From positions 7,314-39,313 of the forward strand of contig JAVRCF010000017.1 of assembly GCA_034530935.1 (NCBI GenBank): a stretch of 32,000 nucleotides of DNA, read 5' to 3'. Below the pieces are notes generated by a model, which was not told the origin of the DNA, did not search any database, and saw only the letters and a program-made list of their open reading frames with translations. Positions 9,577 through 15,007 of this stretch are shown in pieces. The DNA comes from Aulosira sp. DedQUE10. GTDB lineage: Bacteria > Cyanobacteriota > Cyanobacteriia > Cyanobacteriales > Nostocaceae. The translations under genes were made by a program, and so were the position numbers. How positions within the stretch are numbered: position 1 is the stretch's first letter; every line of letters starts with the position of its first letter.

Positions 9577-10008
9577 ATGACACATGACCAACATATTAAA
9601 CCAATAGTTTGGGTACATGGAGACTGTCTTAGTCCTCACAATCCCGCACTCCAAAATTATCCCAACGTCCCAGCCATCTGGGTGTGGGATGATGCTTTGA
9701 TAGCAGAATGGCAACTGAGCCTGAAACGCCTCACCTTTATCTACGAATGCTTACTAGAATTACCAGTCGTCATCCGTCGTGGTGATGTAGCACAAGAAAT
9801 TGTAGCGTTTGCCAAAGAGCATCATGCCGACTTAGTTGTAACCACCGCAAGTCCTAGCCCACGCTTTGCTGATATTTGCAACTCAGTGGAATCTTCTTTA
9901 GCTATGGAAGTGCTACAAGTAGAAGCATTTTTTGATTACGACGGGTATATTGACCTGAAGCGCTTCTCCCGCTATTGGAAAGTTGCCCAGAATTATGTTT
10001 TTGAATAA
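9577..10008 (+). CDS. Hypothetical protein resembling the N-terminal alpha/beta domain of photolyase/cryptochrome (stand-alone)
   Basis: 143 aa. IVWVHGDCLSPHNPAL...VIRRGDVAQEIVAFAKEHHADLVV recalls the photolyase N-terminal pattern (xxWFRRDLRLxDNPAL...RRGDP...). There is no FAD-binding helical domain. The start codon sits inside AAATGAC heptamer repeats. Confidence 0.5.
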   Translation: MTHDQHIKPIVWVHGDCLSPHNPALQNYPNVPAIWVWDDALIAEWQLSLKRLTFIYECLLELPVVIRRGDVAQEIVAFAKEHHADLVVTTASPSPRFADICNSVESSLAMEVLQVEAFFDYDGYIDLKRFSRYWKVAQNYVFE

Positions 10009-10132
10009 GCAGCGATCGCTAAATCTAGCGTTAAGTTGACACGTATGAGCATTGCTGTGCCCTTACAGTGTGGTTCAAATAGGTGAAAACTGCTGTATAC
10101 CAATTTGAAAAAAGAATGTAACAAATGGGTAG

Positions 10133-10153
10133 GGGCACAGCACTGCTGTGCCC
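10133..10153. repeat. SDR-type hairpin GGGCACAGC-ACT-GCTGTGCCC
   Basis: A perfect 9-bp stem. A near-identical copy with the same GTAGG left flank is at 18146-18165, and a partial copy (gctgtgccc) is near 10053. Confidence 0.8.
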
Positions 10154-10186
10154 TCCGAATGATTTATCTGTCGCTCTACATACTCA

Positions 10187-10396
10187 TTCACGAGTATTAA
10201 AGACTCGTTCACGGAGTTAAAACCCACATTCACGGAGCTAAAAGCCTGATTCACGGAGCTAAAAGCCTTATTAACGGAGCTAAAAGCCTCGTTCACAGAG
10301 CTAAAAGCCTCATTGACGAAGCTAAAAGCCTCGTTCGCGGAGCTAAAAGCCTCGTTGATGGAGTTCAAAGCCTCATTAACGAGTATCAAAGACTCA
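10187..10396. repeat. Tandem array of ten 21-bp units (consensus TTCACGGAGCTAAAAGCCTCG)
   Basis: Unit starts are at 10187, 10208, 10229, 10250, 10271, 10292, 10313, 10334, 10355 and 10376. Central units are near-identical. The two terminal units are more diverged and resemble each other (GAGTAT-AAAGACTC). Confidence 0.9.
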
Positions 10397-10567
10397 ACTG
10401 CATAACATCTTGAGAAAAACTATTCTCATACTCAAGCTCAAAGCAAGAAATATCCTGATTAGAGGCAGAAAATGGTTGTGATCCTAAGTTTGTATCATTA
10501 TCTCCCTAAGTTTACTGAAAAAATTCCTTATAATCATTGGTAATGGTCTAATATCGTACTCAAGGAC

Positions 10568-11023
10568 ATGGAACCAATTACCGTCGGTGCGATCGCTCTT
10601 TTAACTTTAATCGGCAATAAGATCATCGATTGGTCAACAGAAAAGGCTTTGGATGCTGGTTTAGACAAAGCCAAGCAAGTTATTAAAGCTAAATCACCCG
10701 ATACAGCCGCAGCTTTAGAAACCGCAGCCGCACAAGCAGCTTTACCGCCGGGAGAACGAGAAGATATTGGTGAGGCTGTGTTAGTAGAACAGGTAAAAAA
10801 AGCAGCAGAAGCAGACCCGGAAATTAAGGAGGCTGTAGATGCATTAGGAAATCAAGTCACGACGGCTGCACAGGCTAACCCGGAACTGGCAAAGGCTATT
10901 GCAGAGTTAACCGCAGCTATTAAAGCGCAAAGTCCGACAACGGTAGAGAACTGGCAAGGTATAAATATCAAGGGTGGCGAGAATACTATCAGTAATCCCA
11001 CTTTAAACTTTGGCAGCAAATGA
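10568..11023 (+). CDS. Small helical protein with a hydrophobic N-terminus and a C-terminal G/N-rich motif shared with the downstream NLR (Bell-like effector candidate)
   Basis: 151 aa. MEPITVGAIALLTLIGNKII is followed by an A/E/K-rich helical region. The C-terminus is ENWQGINIKGGENTISNPTLNFGSK. The stop overlaps the next start (ATGA at 11020-11023). Confidence 0.75.
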   Translation: MEPITVGAIALLTLIGNKIIDWSTEKALDAGLDKAKQVIKAKSPDTAAALETAAAQAALPPGEREDIGEAVLVEQVKKAAEADPEIKEAVDALGNQVTTAAQANPELAKAIAELTAAIKAQSPTTVENWQGINIKGGENTISNPTLNFGSK

Positions 11024-13140
11024 GCAATGAGAATTGGCAAGGGATAAACATTAAGGGTGGCGAGACTAACATCAACAACCCAACAATTAATATTGGATCA
11101 TCACAACAGACTTCTCCACCAAATATCCCCAACAATTTAATTTACAAAGGCGCTGTCAAGTTTGTTGGGCGAGACAATGAACTTAGCGACATCCATCAGA
11201 AATTGCAGCAGTCTGGTAACGTAGCAATTTCGGCGGTAGCTGGGATGGGAGGTATCGGTAAAACAGAACTAGCAACCCAGTATGCACTAAGACATGAGGC
11301 TGATTATCCTGGCGGTATCTGCTGGCTGAATGGGAGAGAATCGGATTTAGCAGCTAGCATTGTGCAATTTTATCTGTTGTACATCGGTAAAGAAATCCCC
11401 AAAGAATTAGGCGGAAAACTGCTGAACCTCCAAGAACAAGTGCGGTGGTGTTGGCAGCATTGGCAACCATCCGAGGGTTTGGTGTTGGTAGTATTAGATG
11501 ATGTCACTAATTTAGAGAATCTGCGAGAAGTACAACCGACAACCAACCGCTTCCGGGTACTCATCACCACCCGGTTACGCAATCTCAACCCCAATTTTGT
11601 CGAGGAAATTTCCTTAGATGTACTCCCGGAAATTAAAGCGTTAGAACTGCTAACAGCTTTTGTGGGTGAAAAGCGAATACAACGGGAAGAAACAACCGCT
11701 AAACAATTGTGTCAATGGCTGGGATATTTACCCTTGGGGTTGGAATTAGTCGGACAGTATTTAGCTGAAGATCCAGATTTATCTTTAGCAGAAATGTTGG
11801 AAAGACTGAAGGTGCAACGGCTAGAGGATGAAGCACTAGAACGGAGACAGCCAACCCTGAATACAGCACAGCTAGGAGTGAAAGCCGCCTTTGAATTAAG
11901 CTGGCGAGAACTGGAGGAAAAAACTCAGTTTGTGGGTGCGTTGTTGAGTTTATTTGCGCCTGATGTCATACCTTGGCAATTGGTAGAGTTTACCAGTGAG
12001 TTGCTGCATTGGGCAAAGGCAGATGTAACGGAAGCGAGAAAGCAACTCTACAAACGCTATCTCATTCAAAGATTAGAAGATAAAAACGCTTGCTATCAAA
12101 TTCATTCTTTAATTCGGGAGTTTCTCAAAGGGAAATTTGGACAAATTAGCTTCCTCGCTGGTGGTGAAGAGTTAGGAGTGGAATTCAAACAGGCTTTTGC
12201 AGCCACGATGGTAACAAAAGCCAAAGAAATTCCTCATACCCCCACCCGTGAAGTTACCGAGTCAGTGCAAGATACTATTCCCCATCTCCAAGAAGTAGCC
12301 CAAAATTTAATTGATGTCGTCAAGAATGAAGATTTAATTTGGGTGTTTGGGGGATTGGGTAGATTTTATCAAGGACAGGGTTTGTATGCATTAGCAGAAC
12401 CTTGGTACAAGCAGTGTTTATCAACAGTCAAAGCCCGTTTGGGAGAAGAACATCCCGACATCGCCACCAGCCTCAACAATTTGGCTTTACTCTACTTTTT
12501 CCAAGGAAATTACACCGCACCCGAACCCTTGTATCAGCAAGCTTTGGCAATGTATAAACGCTTGCTGGGAGATGAACATCCCCGTTTTGCCACCAACCTC
12601 AACAACTTGGCTTTACTCTACGAATCCCAAGGAAGGTACACTGAAGCCGAACCCTTGTACCAGCAAGCTTTGGCAATGAGAAAACGCCTGCTGGGAGATG
12701 AACATCCCGATGTTGCCGCTAGCCTCAACAACTTGGCTTTACTCTACTCTTCCCAAGGAAATTACACCGCAGCCGAACCCTTGTATCAGCAAGCTTTGGC
12801 AATGAGTAAACGCCTGCTGGGGGATGAACATCCCGACGTTGCCACTAGCCTCAACAACTTGGCTAATCTCTACTTTTTCCAAGGAAATTACACCGCAGCC
12901 GAACCCTTGTATCAGCAAGCTTTGGCAATGAGTAAACGCCTGCTGGGAGATGAACATCCCGAAGTTGCCACTAGCCTCAACAACTTGGCTTTACTCTACA
13001 AATCCCAAGGAAGGTACACTGAAGCCGAATTCTTTTATTTGCAAGCCTTGACGATTTATGAGCAAAAATTAGGTGTTAATCATCCTTATACAGTTAAGTG
13101 TCGTAAAAATCTTCAACTTCTTCGTGATGCTAACTCTTAA
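11020..13140 (+). CDS. NLR-like STAND ATPase: N-terminal G/N-rich motif + NB-ARC + TPR repeats
   Basis: 706 aa. The N-terminus is MSNENWQGINIKGGETNINNPTINIGS. Walker A GMGGIGKT is at nt 11242-11265. Also present: Walker B LVLVVLDDV, RVLITTR, and a GLPL-like YLPLGLELVG. The C-terminus has at least 6 TPR_10/12-type 42-aa repeats (HPDVATSLNNLALLY..QG.YT.AEPLYQQALAM.KRLLGDE). Confidence 0.9.
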   Translation: MSNENWQGINIKGGETNINNPTINIGSSQQTSPPNIPNNLIYKGAVKFVGRDNELSDIHQKLQQSGNVAISAVAGMGGIGKTELATQYALRHEADYPGGICWLNGRESDLAASIVQFYLLYIGKEIPKELGGKLLNLQEQVRWCWQHWQPSEGLVLVVLDDVTNLENLREVQPTTNRFRVLITTRLRNLNPNFVEEISLDVLPEIKALELLTAFVGEKRIQREETTAKQLCQWLGYLPLGLELVGQYLAEDPDLSLAEMLERLKVQRLEDEALERRQPTLNTAQLGVKAAFELSWRELEEKTQFVGALLSLFAPDVIPWQLVEFTSELLHWAKADVTEARKQLYKRYLIQRLEDKNACYQIHSLIREFLKGKFGQISFLAGGEELGVEFKQAFAATMVTKAKEIPHTPTREVTESVQDTIPHLQEVAQNLIDVVKNEDLIWVFGGLGRFYQGQGLYALAEPWYKQCLSTVKARLGEEHPDIATSLNNLALLYFFQGNYTAPEPLYQQALAMYKRLLGDEHPRFATNLNNLALLYESQGRYTEAEPLYQQALAMRKRLLGDEHPDVAASLNNLALLYSSQGNYTAAEPLYQQALAMSKRLLGDEHPDVATSLNNLANLYFFQGNYTAAEPLYQQALAMSKRLLGDEHPEVATSLNNLALLYKSQGRYTEAEFFYLQALTIYEQKLGVNHPYTVKCRKNLQLLRDANS
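12451..13080 (+). repeat. Five in-frame 126-bp tandem units encoding the TPR sensor of the NLR
   Basis: Units start at 12451, 12577, 12703, 12829 and 12955. The segment 12753-12864 differs from 12879-12990 at only 2 of 112 nt. Confidence 0.9.
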
Positions 13141-13217
13141 CTCTTGACCGAACAAGGCAAAAGTTAAAAGTTAAAAGGCAAAAGAAAGAAATAAAAAGAA
13201 AAATGGTCACAGAGCAA

Positions 13218-13517
13218 CTAAATTTATGATGTTGTTGGTCAATTCATGATGGGTTAAACCCCCCACCCTTAAAGCCTTAGTTTAGGGTTGCTTTCCCGCC
13301 CTGCAATGAATTGCGGGCTAATAGTTCAAGTGCGTTGAAACGCACTGAAATTAAAGAACTTGCCAATAGACATCTCCGAAAATGGCGTAGGCACAATTCA
13401 TGAATTGTGCCTACCAAGGATTTCAGACAACGCATAATTAATTTCTGGAGATGTCTAATGAATTGAGGCTGATAGGTTAAACCCCCTATCAATTCGCCAA
13501 CAACATCATAAATTTAG
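13218..13517. mobile_element. MITE-like non-autonomous element (about 300 bp) with 21-bp perfect terminal inverted repeats
   Basis: The left TIR ctaaatttatgatgttgttgg (13218-13238) is the reverse complement of the right TIR ccaacaacatcataaatttag (13497-13517). Imperfect pairing continues inward (ggttaaaccccc on both sides). An internal palindrome gtaggcacaattcatgaattgtgcctac is present. No credible ORF. Confidence 0.75.
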
Positions 13518-13612
13518 GGGCATTATCTTTTTACTTTTTACTTCTCTTCAGTAGCAGACATGGATCAAATAATTGCACAATAAAAGCAGTTCGTCATGGT
13601 TACTACCTAGAA

Positions 13613-15007
13613 ATGCCCACTAAACTAGCTGATACACAAAATTTACTTTCTGAGCTAATTGCCCGCTACTCATCTCGTGTAGATTATTTGATGATTCGCC
13701 TGGAAGAAGCAGAAGGTACTGATATCCTGTTGCGTGGTGACAAAGTAGAAACCCTGAGTGAAGGGATCTCAATCGGTGGACATATTCGCGCTTGTTATAA
13801 AGGTGGGTGGGGTTTGAGCTGCTTTAATCAGCTTTCGACAATTACCGCACGGATTGAAGAAGCGATCGCAGCTGCACGCATGGTAGGAGATGAAGAAACT
13901 GTACTAGCACCCATTGACCCGGTACAAGCAATATGCAGTCTACCCCTAACAGGAACAGATCCGCGAAAGATTTCTCTGTTTGAGAAAAAAGAATTGTGCG
14001 ATCGCTATTGTGAGTTACTCAAAAGCGTTGATTCCCGGATTACTACTACTTCAGTCCGCTACGGTGATAGTTTCCAAAAAATCATTCTCGCTACTTCTGA
14101 AGGTACATTAATCGAGCAATCTTGGGTGGATATGGAAATGCGGTTCGCCGCTACAGCCAGAAACGGCGACACTGTGCAAACTGGTAGAGAAACTACAGGT
14201 TCCCGAAAAGGCTATGAAGACTTAACTTCTTTAGATGCACAAGTTAAGAATGCAGCAAAAAGAGCGATCGCAGCCTTATCTCTACCGTCAGTAAAAGGCA
14301 ATACTTATACCGTAGTCATTGACCCCATACTTACTGGTTTGTTTGTTCATGAAGCTTTTGGGCATCTGTCTGAGGCTGATATGGCTTACGAAAACCCCGA
14401 TTTGTTGGAAGTAATGACCATTGGGCGGCGATTTGGCCCAGAAGAACTGCAAATTTTTGATGGTGCTGCGCCCCTAGGACATCGCGGTAGTTATTTTTAT
14501 GACGACGAAGGTACACCAGCCACGACAACACAATTAATTAAAGATGGAGTTTTGGTAGGACGGTTACATTCCCGTGAAACCGCAGGCAAATTAGAGGAAG
14601 CGCCCACAGGCAATGCTCGCTGTCTCAATTATCACTTTACACCAATTGTGCGGATGACAAACACCTGGATTGAAAGGGGTAAAACACCAGTTGCAGACTT
14701 ATTTAGTCAAATCAAAGAAGGAGTATATGCGCGTAATTGGCTAGGTGGGATGACAAATGGGGAAATGTTCACCTTTAGCGCTGGGGAAGCATGGATGATT
14801 AGAAACGGCAAAATTGCTGAACCTGTGCGAGATGTCACACTTTCAGGTAACGTTTTTCAAACCTTAGCCGATATTGAAGCAATTGGTGATGACTTTTACT
14901 GGGATGAATCTGGTGGTTGTGGTAAAGGTGGACAAAATGGCTTACCTGTAGGTTGTGGTGGCCCAAGTTTGCGAATTCGGGATGTAGTAGTTGGAGGTGA
15001 AGCTTAA
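13613..15007 (+). CDS. tldD: TldD-family metalloprotease (TldD/PmbA superfamily)
   Basis: 464 aa. The HExxxGH motif appears in LFVHEAFGHLSEAD. The glycine-rich C-terminus (GGCGKGGQNGLPVGCGGPSLRI) is typical of TldD. Confidence 0.8.
   Translation: MPTKLADTQNLLSELIARYSSRVDYLMIRLEEAEGTDILLRGDKVETLSEGISIGGHIRACYKGGWGLSCFNQLSTITARIEEAIAAARMVGDEETVLAPIDPVQAICSLPLTGTDPRKISLFEKKELCDRYCELLKSVDSRITTTSVRYGDSFQKIILATSEGTLIEQSWVDMEMRFAATARNGDTVQTGRETTGSRKGYEDLTSLDAQVKNAAKRAIAALSLPSVKGNTYTVVIDPILTGLFVHEAFGHLSEADMAYENPDLLEVMTIGRRFGPEELQIFDGAAPLGHRGSYFYDDEGTPATTTQLIKDGVLVGRLHSRETAGKLEEAPTGNARCLNYHFTPIVRMTNTWIERGKTPVADLFSQIKEGVYARNWLGGMTNGEMFTFSAGEAWMIRNGKIAEPVRDVTLSGNVFQTLADIEAIGDDFYWDESGGCGKGGQNGLPVGCGGPSLRIRDVVVGGEA

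Follow-up and report, generated by a model that had tools for sequence, protein, structure and literature searches.

A 32 000-nucleotide stretch of Aulosira sp. DedQUE10 DNA (contig JAVRCF010000017.1 of assembly GCA_034530935.1; hereafter the window) contains two adjacent genes, for an effector and for a receptor resembling the NOD-like receptors (NLRs), that carry nearly the same 24-residue motif on either side of their common boundary. The effector open reading frame (ORF; 151 residues) ends in the 25 residues ENWQGINIKGGENTISNPTLNFGSK and the NLR ORF (706 residues) begins with MSNENWQGINIKGGETNINNPTINIGS; the two copies of the motif, here called tags, occupy residues 127–150 of 151 in the effector and residues 4–27 of 706 in the NLR. 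They agree at 19 of 24 residues, including all of the first 12, and at 52 of 72 nucleotides. A lysine codon and the stop codon, then the residues M-S-N, lie between them, and the ORFs share an ATGA (a 4 nt overlap on the same strand). The first-pass annotation had reported this duplication, and its coordinates, peptides and residue identity were recovered exactly. When the effector tail was compared with the whole NLR using BLASTP, the match had an E value of 2e-12 for the single comparison and there was no second match; the duplication is not due to chance. The tag contains 5 N, 4 G and 3 I in 24 residues, and its hydrophobic residues alternate.

By its domain content the larger protein is an NLR-like signal transduction ATPase with numerous domains (STAND). 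Pfam assigned NB-ARC to residues 53–269 (E = 1.2e-15) and both TPR_12 (E = 1.7e-103) and TPR_10 (E = 9.1e-86) to six stretches each. The same 4 nt ATGA overlap is present in the related loci L001–L008, L017, L018, L020, L021 and L048, which suggests translational coupling of the two genes. Because the tag copies stand back to back across the overlap, the genes are probably co-translated.

Assignment of the motif and the effector

Ten families of bacterial amyloid signalling sequences, BASS1–10, are described by Dyrka et al. (2020; bioRxiv 10.1101/2020.01.06.895854). The published set comprises 346 pairs, of which 91% are collinear and 42% have overlapping ORFs, mostly from filamentous Actinobacteria and Cyanobacteria. 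The genes of a Bell/NLR pair are taken there to be collinear within 5 kb, typically 10 bp or less apart or overlapping, the Bell effector to be a short protein of ~120–140 residues with an N-terminal hydrophobic helix and an acidic residue at position 2 or 3, and the partner to be an NLR built from NB-ARC or NACHT together with TPR or WD repeats. The consensus of BASS7 is given as NENWQGINIKGGxNTIxxNTFNF, and the bass_07 rows of Table S2, such as PTIINENWQGINIKGGTNTINNNTFNF, are from cyanobacteria only (Dyrka et al., 2020). The window tag matches this consensus and the Table S2 strings, and its host belongs to the Nostocales; the effector-side consensus of 19 non-redundant pairs that we collected is ENWQGINIKGGxxTIxxxTxxF. 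The window pair also has the published layout, with a common motif of ~25 residues, a collinear overlap and an NB-ARC + TPR partner. On sequence grounds, the window motif is BASS7 and the locus is a Bell-domain effector/NLR pair, one more instance of a class already described. Two published pairs were found among the related loci. OUL32057.1/OUL32058.1 of Nostoc sp. 106C is locus L048, a syntenic ortholog with the gene order of the window (DnaJ, ThiS, small ORF, effector, NLR, TldD), and locus L005, from a Peltigera cyanobiont Nostoc, is OYE01691.1/OYE01692.1.

A protein identical to the effector is on record from an Aulosira sp. DedQUE10 metagenome-assembled genome, and its relatives all derive from filamentous cyanobacteria, Nostocales or others. 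With P0006, a Nostoc sp. 106C protein that Dyrka et al. (2020) list as Bell in Table S2, it shares 83% identity; P0006 agrees with row OUL32057.1 in length and in its C-terminal 22 residues. Identity to the L005 protein, the match of row OYE01691.1, is ~60%. The effector starts M-E-P-ITVGAIALLTLIG, with a glutamate at position 2 and the hydrophobic helix MEPITVGAIALLTLIG, and thus has the acidic residue followed by a hydrophobic helix that is expected of Bell proteins. Among 31 family members M1 is invariant, P3, T5 and I9 are nearly so, and every member has E or D at position 2. An exhaustive profile search with the N-terminal domain gave 243 cluster representatives, nearly all of 120–170 residues, whose tails include BASS7, BASS5 (KLAEKIG...GG) and probably BASS4. 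With this variety of tails on one N-terminal domain, the family behaves as a Bell set.

The structure of the effector was modelled using AlphaFold2 (AF2) with 31 homologs. The model has six helices between residues 6 and 121 and a mean predicted local distance difference test score (pLDDT) of 63.5. The tail (residues 122–151) is unstructured in this monomer model, with pLDDT below 50, and coincides exactly with the motif. Searches of the effector against Pfam, NCBIfam and PADLOC gave no match (Pfam holds no Bell model), and a profile search of PDB sequences returned nothing meaningful. Bell topologies are reported to vary widely (Ibarlosa et al., 2024; bioRxiv 10.1101/2024.11.07.622273).

The positions of the features are given in Table 1. 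Orthologous NLRs in L001–L008 are 656 to 1089 residues long; together with the 126-nt units in the TPR region, this range indicates that the number of sensor repeats changes fast among close relatives. The 560-nt gap upstream of the effector gene holds a 21-nt tandem repeat (10183–10381; 9.5 copies with 80% matches), which yields a spurious-looking minus-strand ORF of 104 residues made up of NEAFSSV heptads; at the equivalent position in Nostoc sp. 106C (L048:3033–3347) a gene of 104 residues has been called. A scan of positions 9900–13700 of the window for sigma-70 promoters and intrinsic terminators found none, the scan being uninformative for a cyanobacterium, and Rfam and tRNA scans of the window were empty.

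Table 1. Features of the effector/NLR locus and junction sites in related loci (window coordinates unless a locus number is given).
Feature	Position	Strand	Basis
Bell-domain effector gene, C-terminal BASS7 tail	10568..11023	+	ORF, 151 aa
Bell-like helical domain, residues 1-125	10568..10942	+	AF2 model, profile search, N-terminal signature
BASS7 copy 1, effector side, ENWQGINIKGGENTISNPTLNFGS	10946..11017	+	Sequence match to BASS7, ortholog dN/dS
ATGA stop/start overlap of effector and NLR genes	11020..11023	+	Read from sequence
NLR-like receptor gene, 706 aa: BASS7 tag, NB-ARC, TPR repeats	11020..13140	+	Pfam
BASS7 copy 2, receptor side, ENWQGINIKGGETNINNPTINIGS	11029..11100	+	Sequence match, BLASTP, ortholog dN/dS
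NB-ARC NTPase domain, residues 53-269	11176..11826	+	Pfam
P-loop GMGGIGKT	11242-11265	+	Read directly from sequence
TPR sensor repeats	12316..13119	+	Pfam
126-nt repeat unit, 4.8 copies, 86% identity, inside TPR region	12440-13050		
Type-2 junction sites	L011:4412-4460, L012:4436, L013:4397, L014:4496, L024:528, L025:1150, L027:3045		
Type-2 junction sites (continued)	L029:3939, L031:645, L032:3933, L036:4379, L039:4448, L040:723, L045:3954		

Selection on the two copies and rival explanations

The tags of the window were compared codon by codon. Nine codons are identical, ten differ synonymously and five differ non-synonymously, so that different codons specify 10 of the 19 identical residues. 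Numbers of non-synonymous and synonymous substitutions per site (dN and dS) were calculated by the NG86 method, which gave dN = 0.15 and a saturated dS. Across 17 pairs the copy-against-copy values were 0.12–0.37 for dN and 0.66 to saturated for dS, with the exception of L006 (dS 0.26). Comparison of each copy with its orthologs in L001–L004 gave dN 0–0.05 and dS 0.16–0.50 on the effector side, and dN 0.018–0.11 and dS 0.24–0.46 on the NLR side; both tags are as constrained in this comparison as the globular domains. The substitution pattern indicates that the tag copies are old and that each is under purifying selection. The earlier proposals that the copies are diverged at synonymous sites, that their similarity is maintained at the protein level and that the duplication is not recent are thus borne out. 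The motif is kept by both partners in all 18 other BASS7 pairs recovered, from several genera, and in every orthologous pair examined. It is retained on both sides whether the ORFs overlap by 4 nt or sit up to 230 nt apart.

Partner specificity was assessed using 19 non-redundant pairs, 22 motif positions and 20 000 permutations. The mean identity within pairs was 15.1/22, compared with 13.1/22 for the effector of one pair against the NLR of another, and none of the 20 000 permutations reached the observed value. The NLR-side tag is the more variable of the two in these pairs.

Over the first 1500 nt of both genes, the Nostoc sp. 106C ortholog (L048) and the window share ~91% identity. Its motif cores, VNPQGVITTGGQTTVKGSTFNF on the effector and ENLQGIITQGGKVIVQDSTFNF on the NLR, were compared with positions 10928–10990 and 11033–11075 of the window. 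Exactly at the two cores nucleotide identity falls, to 0.62 and 0.53, and the junction between them is conserved. For the two cores dN is 0.37 and 0.33, and dS is 0.59 and 0.89, compared with dN ~0.04 and dS ~0.2 in the flanks. Because both cores diverge while the flanks are ~91% identical, both tags were replaced together in this strain, and the raised synonymous divergence suggests that the cores are imported DNA. A single recombination tract is not proven, as identity dips separately at the two cores.

Further loci depart from the usual arrangement. In L018 (1651–2433) and L020 (3965–4744) the gene with the ATGA overlap to the effector starts with a BASS7 copy, and its product, a protein of ~260 residues with no Pfam domain and no P-loop, stands in the place of the NLR; from its sequence it looks like an uncharacterised BASS7-tagged partner. 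In L009 (4001–4576; Nostoc sp. NMS7) the effector ORF is normal as far as ...IKNNTLNF, after which it continues in unrelated sequence, and no NLR follows; an insertion or deletion has probably destroyed the pair.

Three other accounts of the matched tags were weighed against amyloid signalling. If a tandem duplication had spanned the gene boundary and left a decaying, functionless remnant, two copies in direct orientation 83 nt apart would be accounted for. This reading is refuted by the substitution pattern, namely the saturated dS and dN of 0.15 between the copies and a dN/dS far below 1 for each copy among orthologs, and by retention of the tag pair in 19 of 19 BASS7 loci (window included) from several genera; neutral decay of a recent duplication is excluded and we give this account almost no weight. 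Concerted evolution, in which gene conversion or recombination rather than selection on matched sequences would keep the copies alike, has two observations in its favour. In L006 (4001–4500) the copies differ at 2 synonymous codons among 20 common ones (dS 0.26, 62 of 72 nt identical) and may have undergone recent gene conversion, and the Nostoc sp. 106C cores changed together, with synonymous divergence above that of their flanks. In most pairs, however, including that of the window, the copies differ at about half of the synonymous sites while retaining the amino acids, so that there has been no recent conversion between them. Conversion can play an occasional part, but it cannot chiefly account for the window pair and is very improbable as a general explanation.

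The remaining account is a homotypic adaptor of non-amyloid type that would tether effector to receptor 1:1, a segment like the effector-associated domains (EADs) of prokaryotic STAND conflict systems; the first-pass annotation had put it forward as its second choice. The genomic logic is the same, with a matching tag on the NTPase and on the neighbouring effector, and partner-specific co-variation is also expected of a binding interface. EADs are reportedly small globular, mostly helical adaptors carried by both the NTPase and the effector. The tag is short, at 24 residues. It is rich in G, N, Q and I, its hydrophobic residues alternate, and the monomer model gives it no fold; it lies past the last predicted helix, with pLDDT below 50 and no Pfam domain over it. 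Its motif class was, moreover, defined together with BASS1 and BASS3, which are amyloid by experiment. The adaptor account therefore fits less well and is considered unlikely. The first choice of that annotation, a signalling motif of the beta-arch or amyloid type, agrees with the sequence, which is that of the published BASS7; an amyloid fold for BASS7 itself is likely by analogy with the other families.

A conserved UGA junction in related loci

In 14 unique loci of the same effector family (type-2 loci; Table 1) there is no NLR-side copy of the motif. The effector ORF of these loci ends in an in-frame TGA that is followed by C in all 14 (CTA in nine, CTG in five). In 13 of the 14 the frame continues via a conserved linker (LQSPERER.KL.PP...F.GRE.EL) into an NTPase. 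The NTPase has an NB-ARC P-loop 48–51 codons downstream in 11 loci; it is a divergent P-loop NTPase in L027 and NACHT-like in L039. No ATG, GTG or TTG occurs for 17–46 codons past the TGA. The tails of type-2 effectors include BASS7, BASS5-like, probably BASS4 and other motifs. The junction element is absent from the window; the window NLR is nevertheless 82% identical to the type-2 NLR of L045 (dN 0.10, dS 0.35), a closeness which implies rapid interconversion of the two architectures.

Two independent SRA assemblies and the finished Cylindrospermum stagnale PCC 7417 genome (L036) have one identical junction, and a junction of this type is also present in the finished genome of Gloeotrichia echinulata CP02 (L045). 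The frame is open for 771–862 codons in five type-2 loci of different genera, and the NB-ARC domain has a dN/dS of ~0.07–0.30 for pairs with an estimable dS. Given the finished genomes, the long open frames and the low dN/dS, the junction is not an artefact or a product of decay. Gene callers place the NLR start inconsistently, at an ATT 16 codons past the TGA in one assembly and at 38 codons in another.

In the 48 nt that follow the TGA the nucleotides themselves are conserved, with dS 0–0.25 in the five closer loci and no excess of changes at third positions. For codons 17–50 past the TGA, dS is 1.15 to saturated (0.27 for the closest pair, L029/L032). A 5-bp hairpin, 8 nt past the UGA and within a stretch of ~45 nt that shows conservation at synonymous sites, is paired in 70 of 70 cells, compared with at most 46% for slid controls. 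Three of its pairs are exchanged between loci: C-G/U-A (10/4), G-C/A-U/U-A (12/1/1) and G-U/G-C/A-U (7/6/1). Compensatory double changes separate the close loci L029/L032 and L011/L014. The hairpin has no thermodynamic support, since single-sequence folding energies were no more stable than those of shuffles (z of -0.1 to -0.5). An outer helix of UGACU with AGUUA showed no covariation and is not claimed. A pseudoknot between the loop and a downstream CCCCC, noticed by eye, was dropped because the CCC run represents conserved Pro-Pro codons.

The type II readthrough signal of eukaryotic viruses combines UGA-CUA, or else UGA-CGG, with a stem-loop ~8 nt downstream (Firth & Brierley, 2012; PMC3542737). 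Type-2 loci resemble it: CUA or CUG comes directly after the UGA, a conserved hairpin stands beyond an 8-nt spacer, and the ORF downstream is in frame; they differ in being bacterial chromosomal genes and in having a hairpin of 5 bp only that is thermodynamically unremarkable. A C at position +4 makes UGA leaky in many organisms, and the readthrough table of a recent review contains B. subtilis SacB as its only bacterial gene (PMC7026636). With a leaky UGA context, a structure at ~8 nt and an in-frame ORF, the junction has the sequence features of a type II-like signal and is a candidate for programmed readthrough. The two BASS papers (Dyrka et al., 2020; Ibarlosa et al., 2024) make no mention of stop codons or readthrough, and a full-text literature search found nothing linking readthrough to Bell/NLR systems.

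When the hypothetical readthrough peptide was used as a query, none of the homologs retrieved had a sense codon in place of the UGA; there were only two short variants, which look like in-frame deletions. In these (P0179 and P0180) the start of the effector is joined to the post-TGA linker, as MEP to PERERVKLNPP and as MEPLTAGAIAVGTIVG to VKLNPPNN. P0173 (909 residues) is a natural single chain of a Bell domain, a segment with a GVIQMG-like motif and a P-loop NTPase.

Programmed UGA readthrough is our preferred candidate for the type-2 junction. Receptors of this family might then acquire their tag in either of two interchangeable ways, from a second tag copy on the NLR, as in the window, or by occasional readthrough of a UGA that would yield an effector–tag–NLR fusion from one message; we put this forward tentatively, at somewhat less than even odds. 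Alternatives are non-canonical initiation or reinitiation downstream of the TGA, a recombination junction for the exchange of tails, and selenocysteine insertion at the UGA, for which a hairpin just past the UGA is also the arrangement of the bacterial selenocysteine insertion sequence. Should readthrough be correct, it would represent a conserved programmed event in a bacterial chromosomal immune operon, a rare case in bacterial cellular genes. Readthrough would determine how much receptor is made per effector, with a tag certain to match perfectly, and would explain both the many Bell-tail proteins that have no matching NLR-side motif and the inconsistent annotation of NLR start codons in type-2 genomes. 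Experiments on receptor/effector stoichiometry in amyloid-based immune signalling would also gain a simple handle from it. The wider interest thus lies in the UGA/hairpin architecture of the relatives, the window pair itself belonging to a described class.

Several type-2 loci have further peculiarities. L012 (4439–5524; Nostoc sp. XA013) has the junction and the first ~25 linker codons, then a GUN4-like/Ig-like protein with its own ATG; a rearrangement apparently left the junction behind and replaced the NLR. In Dendronalium phyllosphericum CENA369 (L039:1–8450) the effector, the type-2 junction and the NACHT-like partner lie by relaxase, MobC/NikA, ParB and PIN genes, a plasmid-like context which implies that the modules may be mobile. 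The NLR is broken past the NB-ARC/winged-helix region in L011 (5533) and L014 (5626), where the TPR part forms a separate ORF with its own ATG, and in L032 (5195) a frameshift breaks it where the TPR region starts. These broken NLRs could be decayed genes, assembly errors or genuine split receptors.

Proposed mechanism and comparison with known systems

We interpret the window pair as a two-gene Bell–BASS effector/NLR module in which BASS7 tags on the effector C-terminus and the NLR N-terminus would allow amyloid templating from NLR to effector (probability about 0.8). The TPR repeats would sense a putative ligand and trigger oligomerization of the NB-ARC domain, which would gather the N-terminal tags into a cross-beta fold. 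The folded NLR tags would then template the matching tail of the soluble effector, and the toxic helical Bell domain would be released or activated. The effector is predicted to be a small, membrane-targeting cell-death protein. Our analysis covers the anatomy of the pair, its family membership and the selection acting on it; templating by BASS7 is likely by analogy with experiments on BASS1, BASS3 and BASS11. BASS1 and BASS3 behave as prions in Podospora and form fibrils in vitro, the NLR-side motif converting the Bell-side motif (Dyrka et al., 2020), and the BASS11 pair Bab/Agp mediates antiphage abortive infection, with amyloid demonstrated (Ibarlosa et al., 2024). For BASS7, the comparisons above add quantitative support not spelled out before, in the form of ancient, individually constrained copies that co-vary with their partner. 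They also suggest that the tag pair is replaceable as one unit of ~155 bp.

Several points weigh against this interpretation. We found no experiment on BASS7 in the literature, and this small family is known only from computation. The co-variation test carries no correction for the shared ancestry of the pairs. Bell membership of the effector rests on homology to listed proteins and on a model of only moderate confidence; a Foldseek search of the AF2 model against the PDB, including the Bab structure 9H9V, had no match below E = 1, and the effector is not represented among the PADLOC models. The locus lies amid housekeeping genes (two ClpP-like ORFs, recognized by sequence, DnaJ, ThiS, TldD, HemD/CobA and TrkH) and outside any defence island.

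Among known systems, the fungal pair of HET-s/HET-S and NWD2 of Podospora anserina, and other fungal motifs (HRAM, sigma and PP), can be likened to the window pair. The likeness to HET-s/NWD2 lies in an N-terminal NLR motif that templates the C-terminal prion motif of the neighbouring gene's product, a helical effector that forms pores. There is no sequence homology, and HET-s carries two pseudorepeats on the effector, whereas each window protein has a single copy; the receptor is of the NACHT/WD type in the fungus and NB-ARC/TPR in the bacterial host. Bab/Agp of E. coli (BASS11; bioRxiv 10.1101/2024.11.07.622273) likewise consists of adjacent genes with a common amyloid motif. Its effector is of the Bell type, is activated by its partner on infection and kills the cell in abortive antiphage defence. 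It differs from the window pair in its motif family, in a much shorter Bell domain (Bab 1–90) and in the lack of any detectable sequence or fold match to the window effector. Phage defence is the role of Bab/Agp and at most a possible one for the cyanobacterial pair.

The closest counterparts are the BASS7 pairs of Dyrka et al. (2020). The exact Aulosira sp. DedQUE10 pair is not in Table S2; the window tail differs from the BASS7 rows in having NP, not NN or GN, at positions 17–18, and its tags have a GSK/GSS extension that is common to both partners. As in the window, the published pairs carry the same motif C-terminally on the effector and N-terminally on the NLR; their genes are collinear and overlap, the receptor is NB-ARC + TPR and the host belongs to the Nostocaceae.

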